A DNA stretch of 64,000 nucleotides from positions 158,203 to 222,202 of the forward strand of contig JAAOMT010000727.1 of assembly GCA_016748015.1 (NCBI GenBank), read 5' to 3'. The translations under genes and the position numbers were made by a program. Below the pieces are notes generated by a model. The model was given only the letters and a program-made list of their open reading frames with translations. It did not search any database and was not told the DNA's origin. Origin of the DNA: Geosiphon pyriformis uo1. Lineage: Eukaryota; Fungi; Glomeromycota. The first letter of the stretch is position 1. The number at the start of each line of letters is the position of its first letter. Positions 1,090 to 56,095 of the stretch are shown piece by piece.

Positions 1090-1500
1090 ATTCTACTCAT
1101 TGATCTAAATTTATTTTTCTTTTTGGTTGTGATCCCTAATTTTTTTCTTGTTTTTACTGGCACTAAAGAAGCTATTTTTATCAAAGGTAAAAATATTTTC
1201 TATGTTATTTTTTTATTTGGTTTAATTATTTATGGTTTTTTTGATTTATTTTGTAGTATTACAATAATATTTTTTATGTATTCTGTGTTAATTATTCTTC
1301 TTCTAATGTTGATTTTTTTCTTTGTTAAACTAGATCTAGATATTAATTGAACCATTGTTGTTGCTAGAATTTCCAGTACTATTTTTAGATTAATGCTAAT
1401 ATGTAAATATGGTTCCAATTTGATTGCTATTTTTGATATTTGAAATCAAACTCTGTATTAGTATTATGTATACATTCTGACATAATATTTTTCTTATTAT
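1090..1500 (-). pseudogene. dUTPase domain inside the Gypsy A1 pol
   Basis: ORF fragments 'HNTNTEFDFKY' (motif 1, AGFDL-like), 'VQLISRSSL' (motif 2), 'IRRRIINTEYIKNI' (motif 3, GIIDxGY-like), an 'EKIAQ'-like motif 4 and 'TTKKKNKFRSMS' (motif 5, RGxxGFGSTG-like). Confidence 0.85.
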
Positions 1501-4500: not shown

Positions 4501-5204
4501 TTGATAATTAAATTCCTGATTTTTATTTTCCTCAGTTCCAAAATTGGGTTGAGATAGTGGTAATTGAAATCTTGATGATGTTGGTAATTATGATTTAAAT
4601 TCTTTAAAGTAATTGCTATAAGTTCCCAATAAGTCAGCTTTTTTTTGTTGGGTTTGAAATGTGATTTTTGCTGATGGTGTTTTTACAGTTAATGTAAACA
4701 TGCCTGTTGATGTTATGTTGATAATACTTCTTGGTATATAATAGTATAATAAGTGAATGAGTAAAACTATTCTTAATTTCTTTTAAGTAAATAGTTATAT
4801 GTTTTTTAGTATTCCTATTGATGTTTGTAATTTTTTTTTGTTGTTGTCTGCAAAAGTAATAGAAATTTCTGTCTGGTATGTTTTTCAATTTCTCTATTGA
4901 TTTTTGTAATTATTGAAGTAAACAAATAATTTTGTGAAAGTGTAGTATTCTGAAGTAATTTACTATAAAAATTGGTGAGTACTGCTTTTGGATTTCCTTG
5001 GTTTTTTAGATAAGATTTAATTCTTCTATTGACATAAAAGTTGAAAATTGATTCTGCTGGCCAATGGTTACTTGTTAATCTTAAGTGAATTTGATAATGT
5101 CAAAATAAAGCTTTTATAAATTCCAAGTGGTTTGTTTTTAGTTTTTCTGATTCTGTCATTGTTTGAGATGATTGATATTAGTGTTGGTTCTCTGCTGAAT
5201 TATA

Positions 5205-5221
5205 TCTTACAGGAAGCACCA
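5205..5221 (-). other. Primer-binding site of Gypsy A1
   Basis: Minus strand reads TGGTGCTTCCTGTAAGA 2 nt inside the LTR end; complementary to a tRNA 3' end ...GGAAGCACCA. Confidence 0.75.
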
Positions 5222-5223
5222 AA

Positions 5224-6179
5224 TATTACAGATGATTATTTGGAGTGTTAATACAAATAACATACCAGTAATTTGGTGCTTAATAGCTAAATTATATTAG
5301 TAATCTCTAAAGATTTTCATATCTGAAGATTTTGGATTGAAGTTCTTTGTATAATAGACAAAGATTTAATGATTGTTTTTAGTAGTCTCCTGAAATATTG
5401 ACTTTGTCAAATTTTTTTTTCCAGCATAGTAGCTAGTTTATTCTGACAGTTGTGCCCTTTTGGTAAGCTCTCTATTAAGTTATAAATTTTATATCCTTAT
5501 TTTGAGTTTTTTACCAGGCTATTTTTGATGTCAATTATTTAGTGCTTAGTTCTTTAAATTAGTTAGTAAACAACAAACAACAAAAGAGATAAAAAAATTA
5601 AAAAAATTAAAAAAAATAAAAGAAAAAAAAAAATTAGTATTCTGTCAATAGTCATGTTCAAGAGTTATTGTTCTAGTGTAGTTAAGAGTTAGATTCTATT
5701 AACATAGAATATAAATAAAGTAGAAATAATTAATATTCTTTAATCAAGCAATAATAATATAGATTTAAGTAGTAATTGATAATTTATTGATATGTAATGT
5801 GAACTTTGAATTGTTTTTAACTGTGTTTCTTAACTGGATATTTTAATTGTGAGTTCTAGTTTTGAATTCTGTTTTTTTTGTTTCTAATACTCTCGCTATA
5901 TATACATAATTAATGTTTTATAAGATCTTATACATTCATAAGCAATGTGCTATAATTTCTTGAACAATGCTCACATTGCTGAGTAATATGTTCTAATCTA
6001 CTAATATTGCTTACATTGCTAAGCAATATGTCTTAATCTACTAATATTGCTCACATTGCTAAGCAATATGTCATTATTTATTAGCAATATATTAATATGC
6101 TCAATATTATTTTTTTATTGGTTTAATTTCTTATCTGTTTCTCTTATTATTTTTCTTGTACTTTTTTTTATGAGTAACA
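5224..6179 (-). repeat. 5' LTR of Gypsy A1 (U3 type R1, ~40-bp tandem repeats at ~5965-6072)
   Basis: Termini tattaca (decayed tgttaca) and gagtaaca. Homologous to 29639-30560 and 60366-61120. Confidence 0.88.
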
Positions 6180-9100
6180 TCATCCAGTAATCTTTGATGG
6201 TATTTTTTGGACTAAAATTGTTAATTGATTTTTCTTTTTTCTTTCTATATAAAATAATTCAGTTAACTTTAACTCCTCTTTAGAAATAAAGTTTCTCTTT
6301 CTAGTGTTTGTTGAAATAAATGATAGATTTGCAACTCTTAAACATAGTCTTACCAGCCTTGCAAAGCAAGTTGGTGAATTAGCTAAGAGATTAGATGCAC
6401 TTAGGCCAACAGTTTTTTAGCTTAGCCCTAGATTTTAGCTATTAGTAACTTCTTTGTCACAAAATTAAGGAGCAGATATAATAATAAATAAGAGTTTAAA
6501 TACAGCCACTAATAGTAAAACTGTTGTGAAAGTAGTAGTTTTTGATATGTTTATTGTGTCAAAACTAAAAAAAAACATTGATAATTTGTCAGCTACAATT
6601 ATGGGCCTAATGGCTAAAGTAGATAATTTTAATTTGAGTACAAAAGATCTCTATTCTCAATAACAAATCTGGTGTGAAAATTTGCTACTTGTAATGTTAG
6701 AAATATTAATGTTCCTGTCAAGCAAGAAGACATTGTTCATTGGCATGTAAATTCAGATACTATAGTTTTTTTTGTAACAGAAACAAAGTTGAGATCTAAT
6801 GTTAAGCCATGAATTGCAAATAAATTAAAGAGAGTATGGATCTTTATATTTGGTTTGAGAAAAGTTTTTTTAGTATTGGAGTTGTTATTATTATGAACAA
6901 TTTTATGGTTTGTTATATTTTTAAGATAAAAGAGATTTTTGGTTATATTGTTTTAGTACAGTTTTTTTTCAAAAACAAGCTCTTAGTCACAATTTTGGAT
7001 TTGTATACTGGTGTTTCTGCTAAAACTAGGTTTAATTCGGCTTTAGAAATCAATTTTCTTATTGCTAAAGCTGTTAACTCCAGTAATTTTGTGGTTTTGG
7101 ATGAGAATTTCAATGAAAATAAGTTTAAGAAAAGTGCAAGTTTCAAGTTTTGTTTGGATTTGGATTTGATTAACTTATTTGGTAGACATTTATTGGTCAA
7201 AGCTTTAACTTAGAGCAATTTGATAGGTGTCAATAAAGTTTTAGACTATATTTTTGTCAGTAAAAGCTTATCATTGGCAGTTGTTTATTATGTAGTTGAT
7301 TCAATAGTTACATTTTTTGACACTGATTACAAGGCTGTTTTAGTGTTAATTGGTTTGAGTAGACTCTTGAATGTTTATTTAAATGGCTTATGTAAACAAG
7401 TTCATTGAGATTAATAGAAGTTTAAAATCAAGAATGCAGATGATGTCAAGTAGATACAATTTAAGAAATGTTTTTTTACCAAGCTTTTGGTGGTAAGAAA
7501 TAGGTTTTTAAATGCTAAGACTTGTGATGATTTGAATATTATGTAAATGCTACTAAAAAAGATGATAGTGAAGTCAGCTGATAAAATATTTTTAAGACAT
7601 TAGTTCAGTAAATTTCAGTGTTCAAAAAACAGACTGTCTTCTAAGTTTTTTGGATTGGAATTGTTAATTGCCAAAATTGTTAAAAAGTTAGACTTAAATA
7701 ATATGCTTAGATTTGATTGTCTTATTAAAAAATAGTCAACTTTAAATAAGAATAAAGCTATTATAGTTGCAAACATAGTATAAAATAGTAAAAAACTTAT
7801 AGATATCATCAAACATTTTTTATTAATTTATAAAATGTACAGAAGATTCAAGATATATAAGCCAAAATTGACTGAAAAAATGTTTATTAAAAAAGCAATT
7901 AAGAAACACATAAAAAATTTTAGTTTTGATAAGAGTGATATGATTAAAAGCATTTTAGATCAGTCTTTTTAAAAAGTGGTTCTAAATTATTTGGTAGTAG
8001 ATAGTAAATTGGTTTTGGAACCAAAGAAGATAAAGTTTAGTGTCAATGTAATTATGAAGAGTTGGATGAGAAAGCAGATTGTGTTTGTGACATTGTTTGA
8101 TTTTTGGATTTACCAATATGTATTGTTAAATTATGTAAGAGATAAAGCTTTTTCTGACATAATGAAAAAGATTAGTATAGAGAAATTGCTTTTAATAATT
8201 AGTGGTTTATCTGATAGCAAAACTGCTAGTTTGTCTGCCATTTCTAATGAACTTTGAAAGCATAGTAGCAATAAGGTAGCAGGATGTCTTTTAAAATTAT
8301 TAAATGTGTATTTGTCTGTTAGTGATATGTCTGCTTTGTGGAAAAAAGTCTGGGTTTTAATTATTCTTAAACCTTATAATTGGAATAAGGTTCTTACAAA
8401 TACTCAATTTATTGCTCTAATCAAAACTGCCAGAAAAATTTTTCTAAGATTCTGTTTAATTGGATTTTGTCTGTATATAGCAAGTTTGGTTTTTTCATGG
8501 TAATAATTTTTTGGTTTTAAAGAGTACATCTATTCAGTTTCTTGTTTTTGCTGTTGGATCAGTGATTGAAAATGCTTTGGAAAAAAATAGGAAACTCTGG
8601 TTGGTTCTGCAGGATATGCACAAAGCATATAATTTAGTTAATTGGCACTATTTGAGAGCTAGCTTGTAGTAGATCAAAATATGTAGTAAATTTATCAGAT
8701 TTTTTGACAACATACATAAAAATAGGGTTAACAGAGTCATAACTGATTTTGGTCTTTCAGATAATTATAGAGTGCATAATAAATTAGATCAAAGTGAAGT
8801 CTTTTTACTCTTTTTTTAGAGAATTTTTAATGATCTATTCTTGTGTAAGGTTAAGAAACAAAAACATTTGTGCAAGTACTGAATTAATACTAAGTTTGTA
8901 ACAAAGACTGGCAGAATTGAAAACAGTAATAGAATGTCTTTTTTTTTACTGTTGATGTATTTTTTAATGATATTATTTGGGTTAAAAGCAGTCAGATGTC
9001 TATACAATACACTTTAAACATTGTCAGTAAGTTTTTTAGGATCAATAATATTTCGATTAACAATAAAAAAACAGTAGCTATTTTTATTAATTAGGATGTT

Positions 9101-11480
9101 AGAGTTGTTTTTTTAAGTATTAGTGATCAGCCAATTTTAATTGTCAAGAAAAGTAAAGTACATAGATATCTAGAGATTTTTTTGTTGACTGAAGGTTTAT
9201 TCAAGTCTAGTGTGATCAAGACTTATTTTGATATTCAGTTTTTTGTTAATGTGGTGTTTAGAAAGGCTATTATAAATAAGCAGTTTTCTTATTTGGTGTC
9301 AGCTGTTTTGCAGTGCATAATCAGTTATAGAATCTAGTTCAATTTTGTCTTATTAAGTATGTACTGCAAATAAGATGTTATGATTAAAAAGGACCTTAAA
9401 TCTAAAGTCTGTTTGTCCTGTAATTTCTCTAATAAGACTTTGTATTATCTTTCTTTATATGATCAAAAATTATTTAAGCAAGTGCAGTCCAAAGAAAAAG
9501 TAACTGCTTTGATTTTCTTTGCTAATACTTTAGACATTTTTAGGTGTCTGTTTAATTATAGATTTTTGGATTTGCAAATTATAAATTGGGCTTTTCTAAA
9601 TTTTTTGCAATTTTCTATCAAGTTGTATATTAGTCTAATAAACAATTTTTTGGCTAAAGTGGTAAAAAATTTTTTAGACAATGAACTGTCTTTAATAAAC
9701 AATTTTCTCAATGTTTTTTGTAGTTCTGATAATTTTTCTATGTCAATAATTTTGAGAAAAACTTTGTATTTTGGTTTTGTTTATTTCTTAAAGTGTTTTA
9801 GAATCACTTTTAATGATAGGTTTTTTGATAAAAAAGGTGTTGTAATGAACTAGATGACTTTTTGTTGATAGAAAAAATTGAATTTTAGAGGCCCTGTATT
9901 TTATTGGTTTGAGTTTATATCTAAATTTTTACATGATAAAATTTTTTTGTTAAGTAATTCTGTTGAGACCAATCAGTTATTAAACTTGAACATTTTGGAA
10001 TCCAAGAGATTTTTTAACATTTGGAGTGCTTTGCATGAAATTTGGTTTGGCTTATTTGATGTCTATACAGATAATTCATTAAAAAATACTGAATTTGCTA
10101 ATATAACTAGTAAACAACTGTGTATTTTTTTGCTATAGATATGAGTATTGAAATTGGAGCACATAAGCTTTTGTCATCTACTATAGCTGAATTACAGACT
10201 GTTGCTCTGTTCTTAAGGTGTATTCCATTTTCTTACATGGTAATTTTCCACTTTAACAGCCAAGCTGTAATTAATACATGTGTGTTTAATGTGTTGTTTG
10301 CTGTATCAGACTTTTGTAATTGTTGTTGGTTAGAAAAAAAACATATTGTTAATTTGATTAGGAATAAGAATTTTATAGTAAGCTAAGTAAAAGTTAAAAG
10401 TTATTCAGAAGTATCTAATAATATAAAGACTGATGCTATAGTGGATGAGACTGTTTATTTTTTTTTTCTTTGTTAGTGGAAATACGAAACTGTTTTTAGA
10501 TTGCTGAAAACACTGTTGTATCAGGCAATGCTCATTATTTTATTAGAAATTTGTTTAGGTCTATTTGTCACACTTATTAAGAAACTGGTCTTGGTTATAA
10601 TATGATTCTAAATGTATTAATCAAAAATATAGATTAAACTACTACTGCAAGAATATGACATTCTGATTTACATATGCTTTCTGAGTTTACCAGTTAAAAG
10701 TCTTCTAATCTGTATATGTATTTAATAAAAGCTGTATATAAATGACTACCAATGGTAGTTAAAAAAAAATTGTATGATAAGTGATATCTTGGTGTACTAT
10801 GTTTGCTGTGTAATGAGATAGAGTTCTCTGATCATGCTTTTATATGTGTTTGGGATGTTAATATTTAAGAAAAAATTTTGGTTGAAGTATTTGTGTATTG
10901 GATTGCTTTGGCAGGAGTTTGTAATCTGTCTTCTTTTATTATTTTGTGGACATTTTCTAAATGTTTTTTAGATATAAGTTTGTATACAGTAGTTTATAAG
11001 AGATTTGTGTTAAGGGATTAGTATACAGAAGTTATTGGAATTTTTGCTAAAAAAAAACTGTCTCTGCTGTTATTAATTACATAAAGCATTTGGTAGAGTT
11101 ACATTATGCTAAAGTATAGCTGATAAAATTCAAGTATAGAATAAATATAAAAAAGGCTGGTTTATTTAAGAATAGTGGTTTGGTATTAAAATTGTTTTGT
11201 AGTGTAATATTTATATTGTCAGATAATGTGATTAAGTTGCTTAGTATTGTTAAGTTTTTTGCTGTCAGTTTTGATTATCACAAACTGTGTCTGTTTTTTT
11301 TAAGATTATATAATAATATGTGTATTTATATAAGTGTGTAATATTATTTTGTTTGGTCTTAATGGCCAGTTATATGTAATAAGTTTATAAATTACATTTA
11401 GTTTAAACTACTTAGTTTGGTTTTATGTATTAGATAGTAATTGGATTTCACTTAATAAATACAATTAATAAAAAATAATA
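6180..11480 (+). mobile_element. L1-like LINE with APE, RT, RNase H and C-terminal Zn-knuckle; 5' end cut by the A1 LTR; decayed
   Basis: APE start 'KFATCNVRNIN..KQEDIVHWH' ~6680; RT 'LQDMHKAYNLV' ~8607 and 'LDQSEV' ~8785; RNase H 'DVYTDNSL' 10058, 'AELQ', 'NSQA', 'KVKSYSEV'; 'CLLCNEIEFSDHAFIC' ~10800; 3' tail and A-rich end ~11350-11480. Confidence 0.92.
10050..10450 (+). pseudogene. RNase H domain of LINE ORF2
   Basis: Decayed versions of the YTDGS, AELxA, DSQ and KxHSG...AD RNase HI motifs. Confidence 0.8.
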
Positions 11481-11549
11481 AAAAATTATTTTATATTTAT
11501 TAGCTTCTTAATAATATATAATTAAATTTTTATTAAGTTTAATAATTAT

Positions 11550-13823
11550 CTCTTTTTTTGTTTTCTTAATTTTATAATTATAATCAGAGTAAAGAATAAA
11601 AAAGCTGTACTTAATATTTTTTTTGAGATATTTAATAAAATTTTAACTAAAAAAGCTTTCTCTGTTGTAAAAACAGCTAGACAAAACGTTTTAGAAGTCT
11701 TTTTTTTACCCAGTAATTGTAAAAAGCTGCTTTTAGTAGTTGTTGAAGCATTTTCTTTATCTTTGGCTGGTTTTTTATTAGTCAAAGTTCTTTTAAAAAG
11801 ACATACTTAAGTTAGTTCCAGTGTTGTTTCTATCTCAATTAAGAGCTCAAAAGTTTTAATAATAGACTAGTCAACAAGCTGGTTTTTCTCTTTATAGCTT
11901 TTACATTTAGTGTTACTAATACCACCTCTTCAAAAAATATGATTAAAAAGACCAAAGATTCAAAAAAGTGAGAGTAGTCACTTGTCTTTGTTATTATTAC
12001 ACCAAACACTTTTGTGGTTTCTAATGAAATCTTAAATAAGATCTTTGTTGTATTATCTAGCATGTTATTCAAGATAGACCAAAATCAATTACTGGCTGTA
12101 TTGCCAAATATGATGTCTTTTAGCAGATTATTACTGGTTTTAGAAACAAAACAATTATCTTTTATAGTGTTATTTGTTCTTGAAAATTGGGCTGACCAAA
12201 TAGAAACTAAATCATCTCTTTTGTTAGTTTTTGGTGCTGCCACTAGTAATGTTTGGGAAACTATTTTTAGTTATTAAAAATTTACTGGGTGAATAGCCTC
12301 TATTTTAGTATCTAATACAACTTTTAAGATTAAGTTAGCTCATATTAAAGATGTTTTTTAGTTTGTACATGGTTTTTTGGGTGTAAAATCTGTTTCTAAG
12401 AACAATGTAAAACTTTTCTGTATAGAGTTTGCTTCTCAAAACTCCCTGAATACTGCATTTTTGGTTGAGCTTACAAGTTCTATTTATCTTATTATTCTTA
12501 AAATTGCCAAGTCTTTGGTAATTTCTGAGTCTGGTTTTTTTTTGCTGCTGTTATATTGTGTAATGTATTATTAGGTGTGTTTGCTGTTAATATTAAGACA
12601 GTTTTTGGTGTTTTTGGTAAAGTTCTTTGTATTGTGTTGAAGCCTATTGGTGTTTGGCAATATATAATTGTTTACTTTAAAAATTAAGTATTGCTGTATT
12701 TGTTCTTAGTTATTGATCAGTTTTGGTAAGTAAAAATAGTATTAGGATCTTTTTTTTAGTGAATCAAAATAAATCTATTATATTTTACAATAGGTTTAAG
12801 ACCAAGTTAATCAATTTTTTTTTTGGCTATACTGTTTTTAAAACCAGTAATATAATTTTTCAATTCAGTAATTGTACATGTTTTATTTTTCACTTTTCTG
12901 ATTTTGGTTATTATTCCCAGTTTGCTTTGGTTATATTTAAATCTTAGATCAATTTAAATACTGTTATTATTAAAATAATACACTAAAAAAGTGTTATATC
13001 TGGTGGGAAACTCTTGGTTGTTAATGCTGTTTTAGATGTCAAGAAATAGGCCATTTAACTATAGACTATAAAATTTTTTCACTTTTTTCTCTCAAAACTT
13101 CCAAAGTATTTGCTCTATATTTTGTAAATATGAAGTTTTATGTTAAGATGTCTGCTTTTTTGAACTTTTTTGAATTCTTTTTATTAGTAACTTTTTTTTT
13201 TTAAGATTAAAGATAATTTTTTGATTTTGTCTTGGCTGGTGTCTTTAAAATTTGATATGACCAAGTTGTCAACTTTAGTTAAATTAATTATTAAGCCTAT
13301 TAAATTTTTGGTTATTATTTTGAACAGTTTATTAAAGATAATTTGGTTTTAAGCAGTATTTTTAGCCTCAAGATTAATGAATTTATGATTTATTTGAGTT
13401 ATTTTAGCAAAGTTGTTGATAAGTTGGGAAGAGAAATAGTTTTACTAAAAAAAAGTGTTATATAGAGGATATTAACATGTCTGGTGACTTGAATTATCCA
13501 ATTAACATTAATGATAATACATTTTCTAGTTTGATGTTTTTCTAAACACATAAGTCTAATAGTAATAAGACTAATCTTTTAAAAACAACTGAGTAGTGAA
13601 TTGGATTAGTCTTTTGTAATATTTAATTATTTAATATAATTCAAAAAATGTCAGCTTTAAGTAAATTACTTTTATTGTAGCAATGTAATATAGTCTAAAC
13701 TGGTTTAAGTAACTGATTATATATAAAAAATATGTGAACTATATTTAGCACTAGAATATTTAGTTTGTTTTTAATTTCTAAATAGTGGTTGAACCATTCT
13801 TATTAAATTTTAATAAAAAAAAT
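11550..13823 (+). mobile_element. ORF1-only non-autonomous non-LTR element (HAL1-like), copy 1
   Basis: Colinear with 13931-16199 and the reverse complement of 53828-56095. Single decayed ORF with CCHC 'CFRCQEIGHLTIDY' ~13025, LINE-type 3' tail and poly(A). Candidate TSD aataattat at 11541-11549 and 13824-13832. Confidence 0.85.
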
Positions 13824-13930
13824 AATAATTATTAATTATACAATTAATAAAAAAATATAATGACTTTTTTATTTATAATTTTTAAAAAAAAAATTCTATT
13901 TTTTATTTGTAAAAATATAAACAAAATTAT

Positions 13931-16199
13931 TCTAAAAAACTTTTTGTCTCCTTAATTTTATAATCATGACCAAAGCAAAGAGTAAAAAAGCTGCATCTGA
14001 TATTTTTTCTAAGATATCTAATAAAATTTCAACCAAAAAAGTTTTTTCTGTTGTAAAAACAATCAGACAGAATGTTTAAGAGATCTTTCCCTTATTTAGT
14101 AATCATGAAAAGCTGTTTTTAGTAGCTGCTAAAGCATTTTTTTTATTTTTGACTGGTTTTTTACCAGTCAAAGTTCTTTCAAAAAGACACACTTGGATTA
14201 ATCTTAGTGTTGTCTTCACTTCAACTAAGAGCCCAAAAGTTTTTAATAATAAATTAGTTAACAAGCTGGTTTTTCCTTCTATAGCTTTAACACTTAATGC
14301 TGCTAACATTTTTTCTTTGAAAAAAATGGTCAAAAAGACCAAAAGTTCAAAAAAATAAAAGCAGTTACTTGTTTTTACTATTGTTATACTGAATTTTTTG
14401 CGATTTTCAATGAGATTTTAGATAAAATTTCTGTAGTATTATCTGGCACATTATCCAAGATGGGCCAAGATCAACTACTGGCTGTATTGCTAAATATGGT
14501 GTTCTCTAGCAGATCATAGCCAGTTTTAGAAACAAAGCAATTATTTTCTATAGTGTTATCTGTTCTTAAGAACTGGACTAATCAAATAAAAACTGATTTA
14601 TCCCCTTTTTTGGTTTTTGGTGCTGTTTTTAGTGGTGTTTGGAAAACTATTACTAGTCATTAAAGGTTTTTTGGATAAGTAGCCTCCATTCTGGTACTTG
14701 ATGCTACTTTTAAGATTAAATTGACTTATATTAGGGCTGTTTTTTAGTCTGTGCATGGTTTTTTGGGTGCAAAATCAGTATCAAAAGACAATAAAAATCT
14801 TTTCTATATGAAGTTTGCTTTTTATGTATCTTTGAAAGCTGTATTTTTAGTTGAGCTCACAAGCTTTGTTCATTTAACTACTCTTAAAATTGCCAAGTTT
14901 TTGGTGGTTTTTGAGTTTGGTTTCTCTTCTGCTGTTATTGTACTATGTGATGTGTCTTTGGATGTATTTGCTGTTAATATTAAGACAGCTCTTAATGTGT
15001 TTAGTAAAGTTGCTTGTGTTGTGTTAAAGTTTGCTGACATTTGGCAATATGTGATCATTTATTTTACAAAGCTGGACTCTATTGTATTAGCTTTAAATTA
15101 TTAGTCAGTTTTAGTAAATAAAAATAGTATTAGAATCTTTTTTTTGATAAATTAAAATAAGACTATTTTGTTTTTTAAGACCAAGTTAGTTAATTTTTTT
15201 TTTGGCTATATTACTTTTAAAATCAGTGATATAGTTTCTTAGATTGATGATTAGACATGTTTTATCTTCCATCTTCCTAATTCTGGTCATTATTTCCAGT
15301 TTGTTCTGATTACATTTGGTTTTTAAGAGGATTTAAATGCTGTTGTAGTCAAAACTGGTACATTGAAAAAATGCTATATCTGGTGAAAAACTTCTGGTTG
15401 TTGATACTGTTTTAAGTGTTAAGAAATTGGTGAGTTGTATGATGTCTCTATTTTCTTTTCTCAAAACTTCTAAGATCTTTACACTATATTTTGTTGGCTT
15501 TAGGTCTTATGTTAAGGCTTTTGCTCTTTTGAGCTTTTCTGAGTTTCTATCTCTGTTATCTTTTGCATCTTTTTTAGTTATTACTGGTAATTTTTTGGTG
15601 TTATCTTAGTTGTCTTCTCTGAAATCTGATTTGATTAAGCTTTCTGCATTAGTTGAGTTTATTGTTAAACCTGTTGGTAAATTGGTAATAGTTTTTGAAC
15701 AATTTATTAAGAGTGATTTTATATTAAACAACAAGTTTGAGAACAAATTTAATAAGCTTATAGTACATTTAGGTGCTTTTAGCAAGTCTGTTGGTAAGTT
15801 AAAAAAAGAGATTATTGTCTTAAAAACTGAGTATGACATGGAAAATATTAATTTATTTGGTAATCCTAAAGTTCTAGTTGAAATAAATAATAAAGTGTTT
15901 GGTAAGTTGATGGCATTCTGGAAATTTGAATCTCTTGAGATTAAGTCTAGTGTCATAAAAACAGCTAAGTGGCTTGTTAGATTGGTTTCTAGTAGTCTCA
16001 CTTTGTTTAATGTAATTCAAAAAATGTTTATCTTGAACAAGTTTTCTTGTAAGTTGCCAGCATTGTATAGTCTAAACTGGTTTAAATAGCTAGTTATATG
16101 TAAAAAGTGCATGAATCATGTTTAATACTGAAACACTTAGTTTATTCTGACTTACTAAATAATAATTGAGTCATACTTATTAAATCTTAATAAAAAAAA
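13931..16199 (+). mobile_element. ORF1-only non-autonomous non-LTR element (HAL1-like), copy 2
   Basis: ATG at 13966 (MTKAKSKKAA...). Decayed ~700-codon ORF to ~16089 with RRM-like segments, a knuckle remnant at ~15400 and a C-terminal coiled coil ('SSLKSDLIKLSALVE'), running directly into the 3' tail and poly(A). No APE or RT motifs. Confidence 0.85.
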
Positions 16200-16785
16200 T
16201 AAACAATTAAATAATTAGTTTATATTTTTATTAAACTTGATAATTTATAAATTTTAGTATAATTTTTAAGAAAATTTTTCACAACAATAGCAATAATTAT
16301 TTGTTTTTTATTATAACATTTGTTTTATATTATTATAAATACATAGTATTATATTTGTTATTAAGTAATTTTTACATTTTTTAAATAAATATAATTAATT
16401 TTTAAAATATTAACTAGTAGTTATTTTTTTATTATTCATTGTTTTTAGCTAAGTGATTAAAAATATATTTTGTTTAAATTTAAAAAGAACTTGAAATGTC
16501 TTATGCAATTCAGCAAATTTTTTTTCTTGGGATTTTTTTTGAACAATCACAATTGCAAAAAATGAATTGCTTTTTCATATTTGGTAAAACAGTTGTAATT
16601 ATTATTATTTATATATAGGTAATTTTATATATTAATTTTTATCATCTTGTAATTTTTTTACATCATATTTGACAAATTAAATGAGCTTTATTGATTTTAT
16701 TATTGCACAATTCAATAATAGTTTTTTGGCAGTAAGAAATTAAATCAGACCAATGACAACTATTGCTCCATTTTTATTGTACTGT

Positions 16786-19572
16786 TTATGCCCTTTTGCA
16801 TTTTTTTTTCTCGCCTTTTTAGCATAACAGGAGATTAGTAAATCTGACAAAAAAACAAACAATACATTGACATACCTTCATTATACTGTAAAGGCTCCAT
16901 ATTTTTCACAATTTCCTTGCACTGTTGGACCTACTTATTACTTGCATTATGTCCACCCCAAAGAATGCCATTTTTTTTTTCGACAGGATCAATATAAGAT
17001 ATTAACAACTTGTGCAATAGTGATTCTATTACATCACTATCTGCATCATTGAAACATGCATACATATTTTTTGAGAGTTCATAAATGCTCAAATGTCCCA
17101 TTCTGTCCTTGGCTTCTGCTCGTGTTTTCACTCCAATGTTTAAAATATTATTGTATTCAATACTTTCAGATGTCACTCCAAGACTCATGTAAATCCCAAA
17201 GTAAGATAAAGGAAAGAGTTTGCAGTCATCAATGCCAATATAACAAGTTGTTTATTTGAATATATTATCCATTTTTGGTTATTTAAATGATTGTTTGCTC
17301 TTTTTTTGCTGCTTTTTGTCACCAGTTAAACCATCAGCTTCACGATTCTTGACTTGGATACCAATGAATATCACGTTCTCTTCTGTGATTGGAGTTTCAT
17401 CATCTCAAACCATGGCAACTGGAATAATAATATCCCCTTTTTGATTTTGCTTACAAAAAACTGCTGCACCATAAAAAAAAAATTTGATAAAATCTAGTCT
17501 TGTAGGTGTAAACTCAATGTATACAAAATGATTAAACCTAATCTTGCTATCACGAAGTGTTATACTGTTGGCTTGAATAGTAAAAATCAAACTAAGCTTT
17601 TTCCAGGAGTCCCGACCAACAAGTATGTCAAAAAATTTTTGTATGGTAATGGTCTGTAAATACATGTTCCAGACTTTGGGTTTTAACTGAATTGCTTTGT
17701 CAATTGCTAAAAGATACAGAATTCTACTGACAAGTTCATCCTGATTATCTGTATTGACAATAATGTAATTCCTGATTGAGCTGACTAATTGGCCCAAAAC
17801 TTGCATGAGAATTTCAGATTGGTTTATTATATGGCTTGCAGCCTCAGCTAATACTGGTTCACTTGGACATGCAGTAACAAGAGATTCTCATGCCTTATCA
17901 ACATGACACAAGATTCTTATATGGCTACTGACTAACTTGGATGCTTGTTGTAAAAGATTCGAGATTTCCAAATAAAGCCGTGGTCCAAGAATTGCTAGTG
18001 CTTCTGTTACTTTTTTGATAATTACAATTTGCTCTGTTTTATATATGTTCCTGGCTTTCTTACTGTTGCAGAGAATTTTCTCTGTGGCAAATTCTACAAT
18101 GACTTGGTTGGCAACATCTGCCCAAAGAGGACGGCCCATGTAGCAAATTTGATTCATTGCTATTGAAACTGTAACAACTGCTAGTTTTTGTATGCAGCAG
18201 TCCAACACATCAAGTAAATAAAATGGTTTATACAGTCTTTGTCCTTCAGAGCTGATTCTGGTGGATGAATTGTGACAATTTGCAGGAGAGAAATTTAAAA
18301 CTTTTGATAGAGTGTCTGTGAAAAGCACCATAAAACCACCATCCAAGTCCAGAATGGCCTGTAGTACTCTCCACAGATTACAGAAATTATCATTTTTGGT
18401 GAGCACTCTGGCTTCATCAAAAGCCAACAATATTTTTAATAAATGTTTGTTTAGCTTCCTCAATGTAACTATAAGTTTTTTATATTAAACTGCTACCTTT
18501 TTTCGAATGTCCTCGATTTGAGGCTCTCTGATATCATTGAGCCTTGATTTCATCTCACCTCTTACATTGTCTCAAAGACTTTTCTGCAAGTTGAACATAT
18601 CATCACAAATGTCACTGATGAAAATATCAAATATGTGACCACATGTCTTCTCCAGTGTTTTCTCATAAAATTGAAGTTGCATATTCACAAACCCTGAACA
18701 CTTACAAAACAAAGCCACTAGAAAGATGAGATAATAAGCTTCCGAATATGCTTTTTCAGTGAGTTCAGTAACAATATCCGAACAATTTGGATAGTTTTTC
18801 GATTCAGAATCACATAAACAAATATAAATGACTAAAACATTTTTTTCAACTGCCAATTCTCGCAATAGTCTGGACTTTTTTGTCCCGCTGGCTTGTATTA
18901 GTGATGTGTAAGGAGCATAAAACTACTGCGACATCCAGCTCATTGCGCACTGTTCCAAATGGCGAAAGAAGACATCGACATAGTCCTCTTGAGGTTTCAT
19001 TAATGTACTTCTGAATGCAATTTTCAACATAGCATAATTTGGGTTAAATTTCTGTGTATTGACACTACTTTGTAGACCGGATGCTGAAGATTTTTCTGTG
19101 AAATCAGCGTTGAAATAAAAGGCAAATAAATAAGCCCAATTTAGCCAGCATTGCAAATAATATCTCAAGGTTTTATTCAAAAAAAGGCCTCCATTCCCAA
19201 TATCCAAATCACAAAGTTATTACCTGTCTTAGTTGTTTCTATCAATGTATTTTGTAAATTTTGCATTTGCATCTTCCATTCATTCTTTTCTACTTTTAGC
19301 TCCTTCACTTTTTTTTTTGGCTTTTTTTTTTGCTTTTCTAGTGCCTTTATATCTTCTATCTACCAATGCTTTTTGTTTTCATTCTTGTACTTCTTCTGTC
19401 TCAAATTCTTCTTCAATTCACATAACTCATCTTTTTTTTTAAACTCCTTTTCCTTCTTACCTTCCATTAACTTTTCTAGCTTCTTACCCTTCTTCTTCAG
19501 CTTCTCCACGCATCTTTCATACTGGGTTTTTATGTATTTTAATTCATATTTAATATCTTTAATGCTCGTCAT
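16786..19572 (-). pseudogene. Crinkler-like effector: coiled-coil header + P-loop NTPase + PD-(D/E)xK nuclease; inactivated by nonsense codons
   Basis: Exons 19572-19224, 19095-16876 and 16814-16786 with GT..AG phase-1 introns. Walker A 'YAPYTSLIQASGTKKSRL' (~18870-18920), Walker B 'LLAFDEAR', 'PSEPVLAEAA' (~17840-17867), 'KGDIIIP' and 'GIQVKN' (~17345-17360). All five exon-2 ORF-track fragments are in one frame, separated by stops. Confidence 0.85.
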
Positions 19573-20947
19573 GCTGTTTTGTGTGTTTGTTATGATTTGG
19601 AAAGATATAGCCTAATATATGTTTGGTTTGTGTCAATGACATTTCAGATCTTTGATTTATCAGTATAAATTTAACAAACTCTGTTATTGTTAAATTATAA
19701 CAATAATCAGAGTTTTTAACCCCTGCAGTATGCCTACATTATATATCTGTTATTTAATAATTATTGTATTGTGCAATATTTTATTAATATGTTTATTAAT
19801 ATTGAATAAAATTTGTTTTATTATTTTAAAATAAAAATAATTGTAAGTTTTAAAAATTAGAATTAATACTATTAAAATTGAAAAAAATCAAGCCAATATT
19901 AAAATATATTTTTATTTTAAACATTATATATTTAAGTTTTAATAACTTTATATTTTACAAAATTTTTAATTAGTTATTTTTATATTTATTATATAAATTT
20001 ATTTTAAAAAACAAATATTATAGATTTTATAAATTTTTAAACAATAAGACAATAATATTAATAATATTTTTAAAAAAGTAAAAAAACAGTTTTTTAAAAA
20101 AATTTCTGTTTTTATTATATTTTTATTAATATTTTACAAGACAATAATTTTTTTGTCTTAAACTTAATTGCTATTATTAATAATACTATAATTAAAAAAA
20201 GTCAATAAATAAAACTATTTATGGTTTTATAAATAATATTTTTACATAAAAATTTAAAGTTTTGGTTAAAAATATTAAAAACTTAGATAATAAAATAAAT
20301 TTAATTTTAAAAATACTTTTAGATAATATTTGTATTAAATAATTGAAAAATATAAAAACTAATTTTGCAAAAAAGATAAAAATTCTTTTAAATATTAATA
20401 TTAATTAAAAAACAAATAATAAAAGTAAGGCTTTTTTATATTTTTAATTAAATACTTTAAAACTAAAAAGATAAATACAAATAAAATAATAGTTTTTTTA
20501 TTTTTATATTTTATTGCTTTAAGATCTAAATATTAAATCTAAAAATTTTTATTAAAAAAATTTTATTTTAGATATTAATTTATTAATAATTGTCAAAAAT
20601 TATTTTTATAATAAATAATTTTAAAAGACTATTATTTTTTTAAAAATTTATATTTATCTTTAAAAATTTGCAAAAAATTAAAACATTATTTAAAAATAAA
20701 AAATCTAAATAAACAATAATCTTAAAAAACAAATTATATATTTAAATTAAATTATAATTTTTAAAAAAATTTTCATAAATATTTTTAAAAAAGTAATTAT
20801 ATTGGTTTATTTGAATTTAATAAGATTATATTAATTTAATTACAACTAATTAAACTATAAAAAAAGCTATAATAAAATTTGTTAAATTTAATTAAATTAA
20901 TTTATTAACTTCAAAATAATTTTTTTAATTAATAAAAATTTTATATA
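19573..20947 (-). promoter_or_regulatory. Promoter/upstream block shared with the gene at 48048-49946
   Basis: 19573-19670 is near-identical to 49947-50045. AT-rich homology continues to ~20947 versus ~52542, skipping the LINE insert in the second copy. Confidence 0.8.
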
Positions 20948-33900: not shown

Positions 33901-34427
33901 AGAAGAGTTTCAAGCTTTGATTAATAAATAAATTGAATTAAATCTTGACCAGACAATTAAGTTTAAAAAATTTGCTAATAATAGTTATGTCAAAATCTTG
34001 ATTAAATAATTATTGGCTGAATTTAAGAAGTTTTATAGATTTTATAAAATACTAAAGTCTAAGATAGCTAAAAATTTTTATATTAAAGTTGCTATTATCA
34101 GATACATAAAAGTTTTTGCTAATAACAAGAATTGATGATAAAAAACATGCTAGAAAAATCTTTTAAAAAGATTATATTGGATTATTTGGTTGATAATAGT
34201 AATTTAATTTTGAAATCTAATTTGGTTAAATACAAAGTTAATTTGATTATAAAAAATTGGACCAGAAAATATGCTGTCAATAATACTGTTTTTTTATTGG
34301 CAAAAGCAATTTATGTTTCTTAAATATATTAAGAATAGAGTATTTTCTAATGTTATAAAGTCTATTAGCTTTGTTAAGTTTATATTGGTGGTTAAGAATT
34401 TTCTTAATAAAAATTCTGTCTAATTAG
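30960..34427 (+). mobile_element. Second L1-like LINE: ORF1 + APE + start of RT region, truncated by an LTR insertion
   Basis: ORF1 remnants ~31050-32850; APE start 'KFI*KIATCNVKDINNLAKQENIV' ~32860; 'ALNGNFNKN' (GDFN-like); 'KIILDYLVDNSNLILKSNLVK' parallels LINE ~7976. Ends abruptly at the LTR. The 5' boundary is uncertain. Confidence 0.82.
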
Positions 34428-37890: not shown

Positions 37891-37973
37891 GTTAACATAT
37901 TTAAAATATCTTATATAATTTAACAAAATTTTTTTTAAACAACTTATTTTTAAAAAATACAAAATTTTTTTTA

Positions 37974-49946: not shown

Positions 49947-52542
49947 GGTGTTTTGCGTGTTTGTTATGGTTCGAGAAGATATGGCCTAATATATGTTTGG
50001 TTCGTGTCAATGACGTTTCAGATCTTTGATTTATCAGTATAAATTTACTATTTAGGTAACAAACCCGCCTTTGTTAAATTACAGGAGTTTTTACTCTATA
50101 ATATAATTGTTTTTTTAATAATTATTGTATTATGCAATATTCATTAAATTATTTTTTTTGGTTAAATTAAGACTATTATTGTTTTATATATTTTAATATT
50201 GAATAAAATTCGTTTTATTATTTTAAAATAAAAATAATTGTAAGTTTTAAAATTAAACCAGTATTAAATATATTTTTATTATTATTTTGCATATATATAT
50301 GTAACTTTATATTAATTTTTAACTTTTTAAATAAGTTTATATTTAATTTATAAATAAAACAGATTTAATAATGTTATTTTTAATTAAATATAATTTAATT
50401 AAAACTTAAAATATGTAACAAAAATATTACTTACATATTTTTTATATATAACCAATAATTTAAACTTATAATAAGCTATATAAATTAAAAAAACTATTTG
50501 TTTTTATTTTATTTATGTTTTTAGCAACTTTTATTTAAATACTAATTTAATTTTATTTTAAACATTATATATTTAAGTTTTAATACTTTATTATTACTTT
50601 TATATTATTATTTTATATTTTTACAAAATTATTAATTAATTATTTTTATTTTTATTAAATAAATTTATTATTTTTTATTATTTAAAAAACATATATTATA
50701 GTTTTTATAAATTTTTAAACAATAAAACAATAATATTAATAAAATTTTTAATTTAAAAAAATAAAAAAACAGTTTTTAAAAAAAAAATTCTGTTTTTGTT
50801 ATATTTCTATTACTATTTTACAAAATAATAATTTTTTTGACTTAAATTTAATAGCTATTATTAATAATTCTATATTGCTAATGCTGCTATTGGTTCTAGT
50901 TTTATTCTTTCTGTCAAAACATTACACCACTTTCTTAGCATAAAAGACAAACCCCTTTTTGGTAATACTCATCATATAGTCAAAAGACTTTATAAAACTG
51001 TTAATCTTCTTGGGTGGAAATTCAAGTACATGAATGACATAGTTGATAAATCATTCAGTGACCTGATAGACAAGCATTGTACTTTTGATATATGGCATGC
51101 AAATGGTCAGATTAGGTCTGGTTACACAAGTTCTGCTTCTGCAATGCTCTATTTGTACTTTATAAAGACTTTACACTATCAGCTGTCTGTGGCCAAGAGA
51201 AAAAGGTTATATAATTTGGGTTATCTTAGTGTATTGTGCATTCAATATAGACTTTTAGAAGATTCAGATTATATGTTTGTTTATATTTCTAATGTCAACA
51301 TTCATAAAGACTTAATTTTGAATACTATCAAGAATTGGACAAATTTGTTGGGTGTACATATTACTTGTAATATGGTGGTTCACTCATTTTGTGAGGCTAT
51401 GAGCTTGAATTGTCTGTATATGTTTTTGTTCAAAGACTTTGTGTTGAAAAACTGGGTGGCTGAGGCAAAGGATTTATTAAGGAATAATTCAAATAGTGAA
51501 TCTTTGGTCATTAATCTGGTTTGCCATTTTGCTGAGAGTCATAGATTTAGTGTATGGCTGCCAAGAGCCAAACTGAGAGCCTATTATGAGAAGCATGATC
51601 TTTTGCCACGTGATGGATTCATAATTTTGGCATTAAGCTAGATATACATGTATGTTTTAATCTTTATCTTCAATTAGATAGTGTGCAGTTTAGTTTTCTA
51701 CATGATTTTTTTATGACTGGTATTTTTAGTATGTAGTGTCATTTTGATTGGCTTAAATAGCTGGTTACATATGGAAAATGCATGAGCCATACTTAATATA
51801 AAATCTGTTTGGTTTTATGTAATTAGGTAGTAATTGGGCTGTATTCATTAAACTTAATAAAAAAAAATAATATAATTAAAAAAAGTCAATAAATAGAACT
51901 ATTTATGGTTTTATAAATAATATTTTTACACAAAAATTTAAAGTTTTGGTGAAAAATATTAAAAACTTAAATAATAAAATAATTTTAATTTTAAAAATAA
52001 TTTTAGATAATATTTGTATTAAATAATTTAAAAACTAATTTTGCAAAAAAGATATTTTTTTTTAAATATTAATATTAATTAAAAAACAAATAATAAAAGT
52101 AAGATTTTTTTATATTTTTAATCAAATATTTTAAACCTAAAAAAACAAATACAAATAAAATAATAGTTTTTTTATTTTATATTTTATTGCTTTAAATTTT
52201 AAATATTAATTTGTTAATAATTGTTAAAAAATTATTAGATTTATATTATCTTTAAAAAAAATTTGCAAAAAATTATAACATTAATTAAAAATAAAAAAAT
52301 CTAAATAAACAATAATCTTGAAAAACAAAAAATATATTTAAATTAAGTTATAATTTTCGAAAAAAATTCATAAATATTTTTAAAAAAATAATTATTTTAG
52401 TTTTATTTAAATTTAATAAAATTATATTAATCTAATAATAACTGATTAAACTATAATAAAAAGTTATAATAAAATTTGTTAAATTTAATCAGATTAATTT
52501 ATTGGTTTTAAAATATTTTTTTAATTAATAAAAATTTTATAT
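49947..52542 (-). promoter_or_regulatory. Promoter/upstream block shared with the gene at 16786-19572 (interrupted by a LINE fragment)
   Basis: Homology to 19573-20947. Retains TGACGT at 50011-50016. Confidence 0.78.
50875..51865 (+). mobile_element. 5'-truncated LINE (ORF2 C-terminus + 3' tail + poly(A)) with ~9-bp TSD
   Basis: 'YFIKTLHYQLSVAKRKRLYNLGYLSVLCIQYRLLEDSDYMFV' parallels LINE ~10715-10850. TSD aattctata (50866-50874) / aataatata (51866-51874); the empty paralogous site aatactata lies at ~20182-20190. Confidence 0.9.
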
Positions 52543-53827: not shown

Positions 53828-56095
53828 TTTTTTTTTTATTAGATTTAATGAACAAAATTCAACTACTATTTAAAAATTAAGAACAAACTAAGTGTTTTAG
53901 TGCTAAATATAGTTCATGTACTTTTTATATGTAACCAGTTATTTAAGCCAATTCAGACTATATTATATTGATATAATAAAAAAAAACTTATCTAAAAACA
54001 ACATTTTCTAAATAACTTTAAACAAAATAATACTACAAAAGACCAATTTAATCAGCCATTTGGCTGTCTTCAAAGAGTTAGTTTTAACACTAATAGATTC
54101 ATATGCTCAAAAAAACATCAAGTTAAAAAACATATTATTATTTATGTTAATTAAACACTCCAAATTACCAGACATATCAATATTATTTATGCAGCATTTT
54201 TTCTTCAAAGAAACCATTTTTCTTCCCAACTTACCAACAATTTTGTTAAAAAAACCCAAATAAACCAAACTTATTAATCTTTAAACTAAAAACACTGCTA
54301 AAAATAAGATTGCTTTTAATAAAATATTTAAATACAGTAATTAATACACCAATAAGTTTATTAATTGATTCAACTAAAGTTGACAACTTAACCAAATCAG
54401 ATTCTAGAGATACCAGCCAAAAAAAAAACAGAAAATTAACAACAATTACAGAAAAAGAAACAGAAGCTACCAAAAAAAAATTCAAAAGAATTTAAATAAA
54501 TAAAGATCTTAGCATAAAAAACATTACTCATAAAACATAATTTGAATATTTTAGGAGCCATAAAAAAGGAAGATAAGAAAACTGTATAGTTTGCAGTTAA
54601 ATGGCTCATCTCTTGGCATTTAAAGCAGCATTGACAATTAGAAGTTTTTTACTAAATACAGCATTTTTTTAATGTATCAGTCTTGACAACTAGAGAATTC
54701 AAATCAATTTAAGAGCCAAATATAACCAGAGCAAATTGGAAATGAGAACCAAAATCAGATAAATGAAAAATGAAACAAGTTTGACTACCAACTTGAAAAA
54801 TTATATTATTAATCTCAAAAGCAGTATAGCCAAAAGAAAGATTAACCAATTTAGTTCTAAACTTATTATAAGACACAATAATTTCTTTTTGATTCACAAA
54901 AGAAAAAATCCAAATACTATCTTTGTTTACTAATACTAACTAATAATTAAGAATAAATGCAACAGTTTTTAATTCATTAAAATAAGCAACTACATATTAC
55001 CAAATACCAATAGGCTTTTACTAAAAACACCAAAAGCTAATTTAATATTAACAACAGACATATTCAAGAGCATATTATGCAGTACAACAACAGCAAAAAA
55101 GAAACCAGACTTAGAAACCACTGAAGATTTGGCAATATTAAAAGTAACAAAACAAATAAAACTTGTAAGCTCAATCAGAAATACAGCATCCAAAGAACTT
55201 TGAAAAGCAAATTTCATATAAAAAAGCTTCAAATTGTTTTTTGTCACTAACTTTACATCCAAAAAACCATGTACAAACCAAAAAACAGCTTTAACATAAA
55301 CCAATTTGATCTTAAAAGTATTACCAAGTACTAGAATAAAGACTATCTACTTATTAAATCTTTGACAACTAGTAATAGTTTTACAAATATTACCAATAGC
55401 AGCACCAAAAACCAGAGAAAATAATTCAGTTTCTATTTGATCAGTCCAATTCTCAAAAACAGATGACTCAATAAAAAATGATTATTTTACTTTTAAAACT
55501 GCCAAAAATTTATTAGAAAGCATCACATTTGGCAATACAGCCAGTAATTAATCTTGGTCTATCTTAGATAACATACTAAATAATATAGTAAAGATTTTAC
55601 TTAAGATCTTAGTTAGAATCACAAAGAAGTTCAATATAACAATAGCAGAGACAAACAATTGCTTTCATTTTTTGAGATATTGGTTTTTTTGACTATTTTG
55701 TTTGAAAAAATAATACTAGTAACATCAAGTATAAAAGCAATAGTAAAAAAGACCAGTTTGTTAACTAGTCTGTTATTAAAAATCTTTGGACTCTTGAAAA
55801 GAATAAAAACAATATTGGAACTAATTTAAGTATGTTTTTTGAAAAAATTTTGATTAGTAAAAAACCAGCCAAAAATGAAAAAAATGTTTTAGCAATCATT
55901 AAAGACAGTTTTTCATTATTAATATCTAAGAAAAATATAGTCAAGACATTATGTTTAATTATTTTAATAACAAATAGACTTTTTTATATTGAAACTTTAT
56001 TAGTTACTATAAGAAAAGTAATAATTGCAGTTTTTTTACTCTTTGTTCTGATTGTAATCATAAAATTAAGAACACAAAGAGTTTTTCTGAGTTTT
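53828..56095 (-). mobile_element. ORF1-only non-autonomous non-LTR element (HAL1-like), copy 3
   Basis: Reverse complement of copies 1 and 2; poly(T) at ~53828-53837; 'LVSLESDLVKLSTLVESI' and 'KFRTKLVNLSFGYTAFEI'. Confidence 0.87.

Follow-up and report, generated by a model that had tools for sequence, protein, structure and literature searches.

Three copies of a retroelement lie in the 64,000-nt stretch of Geosiphon pyriformis DNA that we analyzed (the window), and these are very probably dead members of a large family of elements composed of a LINE ORF1, a LINE 3' tail, and a poly(A), these elements likely having been copied in trans by a reverse transcriptase from the resident complete LINEs. 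The family kept only ORF1 and ends in a tail that is common to complete LINEs, and it is therefore likely to have spread on a borrowed copying enzyme. From the sequence, we infer that mobilization in trans proceeds via the tail.

Three decayed copies and their 3' tails

The copies, their parts, and the two LINEs of the window are as follows.

11550..13822, + strand: ORF1-only element copy 1, C-terminal type B, 5' end slightly short
11574..13688, + strand: decayed ORF1 of copy 1, mutated start codon, 10 stops and 7 frameshifts relative to P0047
13686..13822, + strand: stop codon, LINE-shared 3' tail, and poly(A) of copy 1
13925..16199, + strand: ORF1-only element copy 2, type B, head-to-tail after copy 1
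13966..16089, + strand: decayed ORF1 of copy 2, 12 stops and 2 frameshifts relative to P0047
16063..16199, + strand: 3' tail and poly(A) of copy 2
53828..56094, - strand: ORF1-only element copy 3, type B, in tracts of ~8% G+C
53963..56061, - strand: decayed ORF1 of copy 3, 10 stops and 5 frameshifts relative to P0047
53828..53965, - strand: stop codon, 3' tail, and poly(A) of copy 3
6181..11480, + strand: candidate partner, a decayed LINE with its own ORF1 3' end, an APE-RT-RNase H ORF2, a tail at 11339-11469, and a poly(A)
50868..51868, + strand: second LINE, 5'-truncated, ORF2 3' end, with the same tail at 51734-51866

A first-pass annotation of this DNA had described three ~2.2-kb copies without APE or RT, and indeed all three are present with one decayed ORF each, while no similarity to ORF2 was found inside any of them or in the downstream stretches tested. 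The near-identical 5' starts that it had reported are uniform, except that copy 1 is ~10 to 15 nt shorter at its 5' end. When aligned with the intact relative P0047 (671 aa), each copy covers 646-657 codons and shows between 10 and 12 stops and between 2 and 7 frameshifts. Copy 2 carries an altered family stop at 16063, such that its frame runs to 16089. Global identity among the copies is 73.5% (1 vs 2), 74.4% (1 vs 3), and 71.3% for the remaining pair over 2247-2264 aligned nt, the substitutions are mainly transitions, and the CpG observed/expected ratio is 0.14. At the 5' end of copy 2, contig depth rises from 342 to >60,000 between 13922 and 13940 and drops past the tail, which is a hint of the element boundary and not a measure of copy number. 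Contig depth over the element head is also several-fold above that of the tail, which is the opposite of the usual 5' truncation. The spacer between copies 1 and 2 is covered by one contig with a depth ~4-fold that of the other pieces listed, possibly a sign of local duplication.

The candidate partner LINE ends 70 nt upstream of copy 1. As had been proposed for a tail of ~120 nt, the ~125-nt element tail is homologous to the tails of both window LINEs, being 65-74% alike in 6/6 element-LINE pairs (z 5.6-10.3), with 0/500 shuffles reaching the alignment scores; this evidence comes from the three type B copies, types A and C being known here from proteins rather than DNA. The two LINE tails are themselves 72% alike, which is comparable to the element-LINE pairs. 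Homology starts where the stop codons of ORF1 and ORF2 align, and the 120 nt preceding them exhibited no element-LINE similarity (z -0.6 to 0.8). A tail profile search of the window returned those five tails only. RNase H is carried by all of the partner-type ORF2 models scanned (10/10), and the ORF2 in L001, which follows an ORF1 of the P0305 type (see below), scores nearly equally against the human L1 ORF2 (69 bits) and R2 (68 bits). Secondary structure of the tail was considered and set aside: a three-helix consensus was predicted, but its covariation was equalled by 124/500 shuffles, and single tails folded no better than their shuffles (5/5 with z -0.93 to 0.32).

An old LINE ORF1 lineage with no APE found directly behind it

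Among 23 family members scanned, Pfam RRM_1 and zf-CCHC were matched by intact ones. In P0005, the RRM (415-468) lies directly before the CCHC knuckle (486-501), which is the arrangement that defines type I ORF1 proteins, in which an RRM is immediately upstream of the CCHC, as found in Jockey (PMC4120745). The type II signature (Transposase_22) gave no Pfam match among the same 23 members. An initial structure prediction was poor (mean pLDDT 42.6) and yielded no structural match at E 0.001; the predicted structure that we used has three alpha/beta domains resembling tandem RRMs (pLDDT mostly 70-94), followed by the CCHC and then a coiled coil, and L1 ORF1p is absent among the PDB matches listed. 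The RRM-like, CCHC, and coiled-coil features previously assigned to the copies are accordingly seen in intact relatives and in the model, whereas the decayed core of copy 2 matches no Pfam family. A protein-atlas query returned unnamed and RRM clusters, with Mucoromycota the commonest source.

The family ORF had been reported not to align by eye with the local LINE ORF1s. It does align, at 23-25% identity across the RRM-CCHC core of 52 LINE ORF1s, and copy 3 matches a LINE ORF1 directly (24%, E 1e-9). Its closest outside relative among the matches listed is P0305 (32% identity), and because the P0305 type of ORF1 precedes an APE-RT ORF2 in L001, the family protein is, as judged from its sequence, a true LINE ORF1 with three predicted RRMs, a CCHC, and a coiled coil. 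In a tree of 22 family cores and 52 LINE cores, the two sets were separated by a branch of 1.63 with SH-aLRT 100. Since the family ORF1 aligns but sits by itself on a long branch, it represents an old lineage rather than a recent deletion; the earlier view that the family is no simple recent deletion product thus holds, although by virtue of this branch and not of a failure to align. By this tree, the lineage diverged long ago from every ORF1 sampled in the co-resident LINEs.

To survey the family, we used predicted proteins, taking the best 120 of 357 APE matches, 120 of 249 ORF1 matches, and 150 of 794 profile matches. The first 75/75 protein matches are G. pyriformis gene models, 58 of them ≤710 aa, and family models are spread over many different contigs. 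At least 215 models belong to the family; five hold an APE, each with a different ORF1 in between, and none of the ≥215 has an APE directly behind the family ORF, even with the L001 APE as probe. For comparison, 73 of the best 120 LINE-ORF1 models contain APE, and the locus-tag neighbor was an APE-first model for 9/47 of the remaining LINE-ORF1 models vs 0/58 family models. The first-pass annotation had suggested searching for a family ORF1 followed by ORF2, and these models gave no case with an APE directly behind. Viewed from the other side, among the best APE models 82 have ≥40 upstream residues, which comprise an ORF1 only 22-36% like that of the family in 74, no match in 7, and the tandem case in 1.

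These counts bear directly upon the strongest of the alternatives, namely that the ORF belongs, as ORF1, to an autonomous LINE lineage that we overlooked and that the ORF1-only copies are its deletion products, as TRE5-A.2 is of TRE5-A.1. Our searches took best matches only and started from a single APE lineage, P0284 shows that the models do include a LINE lineage of greater divergence, and P0196 carries a complete family ORF joined directly to an ORF2 that begins mid-RT. However, P0284 has an ORF1 of its own that is 24-30% like the family where alignable, and P0196, together with P0066 and P0336, in which parts of the family ORF are joined to later ORF2 parts, are best read, at the protein level, as probable truncated neighboring elements. 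Given the absence of APE directly behind the ORF in all of the ≥215 models, L001 probe included, we consider this alternative unlikely. A three-ORF element (family ORF, ORF1, and ORF2) was likewise rejected, because the window copies end in a tail and poly(A) and the gene models show both orders.

Possible selection, insertion, and proposed mobilization of the family

The reading frame exhibited possible signs of purifying selection on the source lineages. Transversions at third codon positions exceed expectation in two copy pairs (66 vs 44 and 75 vs 50; P 0.001, 0/1000), both of which include copy 2, and second-position transversions fall below expectation in the same pairs (P 0.003 and 0.016). 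Overall dN/dS (0.55 and 0.54) was not below neutral simulation (0.62 and 0.64; P 0.15 and 0.06). Protein-guided dN/dS values of 0.43-0.47 were discarded, since that method yields ~0.63 under neutrality with the same mutation spectrum. Such signs, along with the uniform 5' starts, are also what might be expected if the copies were retrocopies of a domesticated, ORF1-derived host gene for an RNA-binding protein rather than a self-propagating family, and co-option of a fungal LINE ORF1 has been reported in an account of the EKA family (PMC4641428). We regard this as quite improbable, because the family comprises at least three subfamilies (A, B, and C) with cores 52-79% alike, which imply several sources over time, the 3' end is a LINE tail, and no close orthologue occurs outside of G. 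pyriformis among 10 looked-up or 75 named matches. When metagenome and prokaryote contigs were scanned using the family alignment, relatives turned up in 0/113 and 0/72 stretches, respectively. Subfamilies A and B are 79% alike in the core and 23% in the C-terminus, and types A and C account for 79/120 models having a C-terminal module. Apart from the tandem case, modules A, B, and C had no match in the LINE ORF1 or ORF2 of the best 120 of 357 APE models.

Candidate target-site duplications (TSDs) flank the copies.

Left 11540..11549, right 13823-13832, + strand: copy 1, candidate TSD of 10 nt, positional P 0.015
Left 13917..13924, right 16199-16206, + strand: copy 2, weak candidate TSD of 8 nt, P 0.083
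56095-56101 and 53819-53825, - strand: copy 3, candidate TSD of 7 nt, P 0.288, not significant

The copy 1 candidate (TAATAATTAT) had been annotated as 9 bp and is actually 10 nt, while copies 2 and 3 have weaker candidates. Each copy finds its best match in its own flank (10, 8, and 7 nt) and the six cross pairs reach 4-6 nt, in a test where one of the three is significant alone and the windows were picked after the sequence was read. Flanks shared between copies, the stated hallmark of segmental duplication, were found in 0/6 flank pairs. That the copies are tandem or segmental duplicates of a single dead fragment is highly improbable despite the adjacency of copies 1 and 2, a 16-nt A-rich word common to both spacers (alignment P 0.051), and the ~fourfold depth of the spacer contig, as these neighbors (73.5%) are no closer than copies 1 and 3 (74.4%), homology ends at the element boundaries, and family models occur on many contigs.

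Returning to an ORF1-only family copied by resident LINEs, its propagation could proceed as follows. A source copy would be transcribed from a promoter within or close to the short 5' end, and its own ORF1 protein, with the three predicted RRMs, CCHC knuckle, and coiled coil, would coat its RNA in cis, which would account for the retained reading frame. The protein of an APE-RT-RNase H LINE ORF2 would then recognize the common ~125-nt tail and poly(A) and, through target-primed reverse transcription, insert the copy into DNA of very high A+T content, often directly behind or ahead of older elements in the same orientation, after which the copy would decay, likely through methylation-driven C-to-T change. 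The original proposal of an independently amplified non-autonomous family mobilized in trans is thus supported by the lack of APE directly behind the ORF in the sampled models and of common flanks between the copies, with the trans step itself still inferred. A more tentative reading, which we think somewhat less probable than its negation, is that the family is both the first fungal half-LINE to be described and a chimeric survivor, with an ORF1 from a lineage whose autonomous form was lost from this genome, a tail of the resident LINEs that is joined precisely at the stop codon and lets it persist, and a C-terminal coiled-coil module swapped between subfamilies, as expected from conflict with its helper LINEs or with the host. 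Among the matches listed, the family ORF1 resembles one from an environmental LINE more than it does those of the resident LINEs.

Comparison with known ORF1-only elements

A classification by Kojima groups HeT-A, HAL1, and the CR1-derived Ag-Sponge as "ORF1-present bipartite nonautonomous LINEs" (PMC5786205). The Geosiphon family fits this class, as it has a LINE ORF1 homologue, no ORF2, and a LINE-shared 3' end (in type B) with poly(A); the sources named in that classification are Jockey, L1, and CR1, with no fungal example. HAL1 of mammals is described as non-autonomous, LINE-derived, and encoding ORF1p only (PMC5753468), with an ORF1 frame kept for a long time, which was taken to reflect ORF1p in cis and ORF2p in trans (PMC3627910). 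The earlier label "HAL1-like" is apt as an analogy, both families being non-autonomous with a LINE ORF1 only, but not for the protein: HAL1 derives from L1, whose type II ORF1 has a coiled coil, one RRM, and a CTD (PMC4120745), whereas the Geosiphon ORF1 has three predicted RRMs, a CCHC, and the coiled coil last, and its partner LINE carries RNase H. In Drosophila, HeT-A and further telomeric Jockey elements with only an ORF1 are reported to rely on the ORF2 of another family and can form ORF1-only clades (PMC13534243). The Geosiphon family is similarly ORF1-only, head-to-tail with complete elements, and of the RRM-CCHC type I, yet its copies are interspersed in the window with Gypsy-like elements and genes rather than confined to chromosome ends, and its 3' tail is only ~125 nt.

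The first-pass annotation had described such elements as known mainly from animals, but TRE5-A.2 of Dictyostelium, as described in PMC3159450, also retains ORF1, has a large ORF2 deletion, is mobilized in trans, and requires a short 3' module. It therefore serves as a tested model for the mechanism proposed here, except that TRE5-A.2 derives from its own partner, TRE5-A.1, while the Geosiphon ORF1 shares only 23-25% identity with the ORF1 of any partner sampled. In fungi, the EKA family of Blumeria graminis is also multi-copy and derived from a LINE ORF1, but is described as made up of complete LINEs in degenerate or truncated pieces, with ORF2 within 3 kb in 1/34 full-length fragments, and that account of it does not discuss a half-LINE (PMC4641428); the Geosiphon copies are instead a unit with its own tail. 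No fungal ORF1-only LINE was found in the literature searched.

The Geosiphon family adds to a known type of element that includes HAL1, HeT-A, Ag-Sponge, and TRE5-A.2. At least 215 database proteins carry its sequence, the 80 that were looked up being "hypothetical proteins" of G. pyriformis, and these are transposon-derived rather than products of host RNA-binding genes. ORF1-only parasites of LINEs are documented in mammals, insects, and an amoeba, and a family both large and old in an early-branching fungus would show this strategy arising across kingdoms and ORF1 types. With an ORF1 that is only about one quarter identical to those of its helpers and a tail as similar to theirs as LINE tails are to each other (72%), the family separates two requirements, an ORF1 of its own in cis and a common 3' signal in trans, and makes both testable.

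Three decayed copies and their boundaries

Self-comparison of the window recovered three copies of the ORF1-only family, each an ORF followed by a tail of ~125 nt common to LINEs and by poly(A). The elements compared here are as follows.

11550..13822 (+), copy 1
13925..16199 (+), copy 2
53828..56094 (-), copy 3
6181..11480 (+), LINE with its tail at 11339-11469
50868..51868 (+), truncated LINE with its tail at 51734-51866

Pairwise global identities among the copies were 73.5%, 74.4%, and 71.3% over ~2.25 kb, with transitions predominating, and alignment to an intact 671-aa relative (P0047) covered 646-657 codons per copy, interrupted by 10-12 stops and 2-7 frameshifts. CpG loss is tied to methylation, and the CpG depletion of the window (observed/expected 0.14 at 22.7% G+C) fits methylation-driven decay. 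Two ORF2 queries detected no similarity within the copies or the downstream stretches tested, while locating LINEs at 6690-10856, 32885-34420, and 50874-51617. Besides the two LINEs compared here, LINE remnants at 31040-34420 (+) and 57465-58250 (+) each carry their own ORF1 type and are interrupted 3' by one common repeat family (from 34425 and 58251). One repeat end, probably the LTR of a Gypsy-like element, lies immediately upstream of the truncated LINE at 6181 (6020-6181) and recurs ~500 nt upstream of the LINE ORF1 at ~31040 (30364-30558); both are nested insertions.

In a positional test whose windows were picked after inspection of the sequence, the longest flank match of every copy was to its own flank, at 10 nt (P 0.015), 8 nt (P 0.083), and 7 nt (P 0.288), while the six cross-copy flank pairs gave matches of just 4-6 nt. 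None of six flank pairs exhibited flank homology, and G+C was 6-11% in the flanks versus 24-28% in the copies. Tracts of 8-12% G+C (46001-48000, 51880-53827, and 56101-57400) harbour LINE and half-LINE insertions and are possibly very old, wholly decayed repeats. At the 5' end of copy 2, the depth of contigs from sequencing run X1, matched at 80%, rose from 342 (13889-13922) to 10,630 (13923-13939) and >60,000 from 13940, and it dropped again 3' of the tail; these depths serve as a boundary hint only and give no copy number. Depth over the copy head was several-fold above that over the tail, which counts against a tidy reading. So does a single 138-nt contig with one difference that runs from the spacer into the copy 2 head (13824-13961); its depth of 342, against 81-97 in the other seven listed pieces, could reflect a local duplication or a collapsed repeat. 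Forty-one contigs track copy 2 as far as 14274 and then turn T-rich, possibly as a short derivative retaining only the 5' ~340 nt, or as chance matches; such a derivative, if real, would also account for the high depth over the head.

A tail held in common, and the search for an adjoining ORF2

From the stop codon on, the tails of the three copies are 75-83% identical to each other and 65-74% identical to the two LINE tails, which are themselves 72% identical. All six copy-LINE pairs beat each of 500 dinucleotide shuffles (z 5.6-10.3), and the family ORF1 stop is aligned with the LINE ORF2 stop. Across the 120 nt upstream of the stops, the copies align mutually (z 8.0-9.5) and have no similarity to the LINEs (z -0.6 to 0.8). 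A predicted three-helix tail fold failed its controls.

To survey from the ORF2 side, we took the best 120 of 357 predicted models bearing APE, 82 of which have at least 40 residues upstream. Of these upstream regions, 74 resembled the family at only 22-36%, seven had no match, and in the last (P0004) the family ORF precedes an ORF1 of another kind. From the family side, 75 first matches and the best 150 of 794 profile matches gave 220 distinct proteins, or 215 family models after exclusion of five non-members (P0305, P0328, P0330, P0334, and P0337). APE was present in five of the 215, always behind a different ORF1. As a gene-calling control, 73 of 120 LINE-ORF1 models (best 120 of 249) contained APE, and an APE-first model was the locus-tag neighbour for 9/47 of the remainder versus 0/58 family models. 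The exceptions are P0196, a complete family ORF fused to an ORF2 that begins mid-RT, and P0066 and P0336, family parts fused to later ORF2 parts. Merged models run family to LINE, LINE to family, and family to family, resembling the LINE-copy 1-copy 2 run of the window; their arrangement is biased because gene callers join same-strand neighbours only. In P0284, a type-C family fragment precedes a third, more divergent LINE lineage with its own ORF1 and an APE 26-28% like the others; a two-piece repeat (37954-39382, 45690-46375, and 47347-47979; 78-83% identity) matches its final 35 residues.

The ORF1 protein, its subfamilies and its relatives

With stops read as X, the core of copy 2 matched no Pfam family, and its protein search returned 75 proteins of 616-2000 aa (58 of them ≤710 aa), all annotated as hypothetical proteins of Geosiphon pyriformis, which makes this species or a near relation the probable source of the window. 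RRM_1 and zf-CCHC are present in intact members, the scan having covered 23 of the 75. A model predicted from a mixed alignment (mean pLDDT 58.7, pTM 0.35) has a disordered N-terminus, alpha/beta domains at 237-301, 326-395, and 410-480, then the knuckle, a coiled coil at 550-629, and, at the C-terminus, a small domain of helices; its top PDB matches are tandem-RRM proteins. The family protein is type I-like under the ORF1 definition quoted in PMC4120745.

Among the 120 models reaching the C-terminal module, 62 are type A, 41 type B, and 17 type C, the window copies all being type B. Identity between types A and B is 77% over the N-terminus and 79% over the core and drops to 23% over the C-terminus, and the two types intermingle in the core tree; this mixing, together with the dissimilar C-termini, suggests that the module was exchanged between subfamilies. 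Between window copies, dN/dS was 0.55 and 0.54 versus 0.62 and 0.64 in neutral simulation (P 0.15 and 0.06), and transversions were in excess at third codon positions and deficient at second, which we read as selection on source copies diluted through later decay.

Compared with 52 LINE ORF1s, which share 50% among themselves, the family's RRM-CCHC core shows 23-25% identity (range 17-32). In a quick-search, midpoint-rooted tree of 74 cores built without an outgroup, a branch 1.63 long (SH-aLRT 100) sets the 22 family rows apart from all others. The best-scoring non-member among the matches listed, P0305, resembles the family at 28-31% and LINE ORF1s at 24%. Support for its grouping with the family is 89/80, subject to a long-branch warning. 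On metagenome contig L001, a P0305-type ORF1, interrupted by a single in-frame stop, overlaps an ORF2 of 1397 codons bearing APE and RT; the family protein is therefore a true LINE ORF1. Its lineage diverged long ago from the sampled co-resident LINE ORF1s, with an uncertain sister group. Partner ORF2 models carried RNase H in 10 of 10 scanned and RT in 8 of 10. The L001 element (1-5972), with its open ORF2, belongs to the same LINE group, is nearly intact, and could be a source of active ORF2 for assays.

Elsewhere in the window, 48048-49985 (-), the only 2-kb block retaining CpG (observed/expected 0.85), holds an ORF for a kinase (Pkinase, E 3e-10) with a coiled-coil-like ORF upstream of it, and 49866-50514 is similar to 19492-20122. 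A long gene disrupted by stops at 16931-19216 (-) is CpG-depleted, yet CpG is not lost; it has what we take to be a P-loop-like motif near 18900, and two pieces of it matched no Pfam family.

Mobilisation and class

LINEs insert by target-primed reverse transcription. Most likely, the family's own ORF1p would act in cis and a partner LINE ORF2p in trans, with recognition of the 3' end and insertion into AT-rich DNA through target-primed reverse transcription. The elements' anatomy is observed; that they are transcribed, bound in cis, and mobilised in trans is extrapolated from tested systems, chiefly TRE5-A.2 (PMC3159450). Other literature was also drawn on (PMC5753468, PMC5786205, PMC13534243, PMC3956500, PMC13465315, PMC3627910, PMC5203782, and PMC4641428). 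G. pyriformis is marked by LTR expansion according to the sections of PMC11952901 consulted, in which no mention of 'non-autonomous' was found; its curated repeat library may already include the family under an automatic name. The literature searched, which lay outside subscription journals and Repbase, yielded no fungal ORF1-only family. The class is already known, with no earlier description found for the fungal kingdom. The three copies belong to a real ORF1-only non-autonomous LINE family, which would work like HAL1 yet falls outside HAL1 strictly defined.
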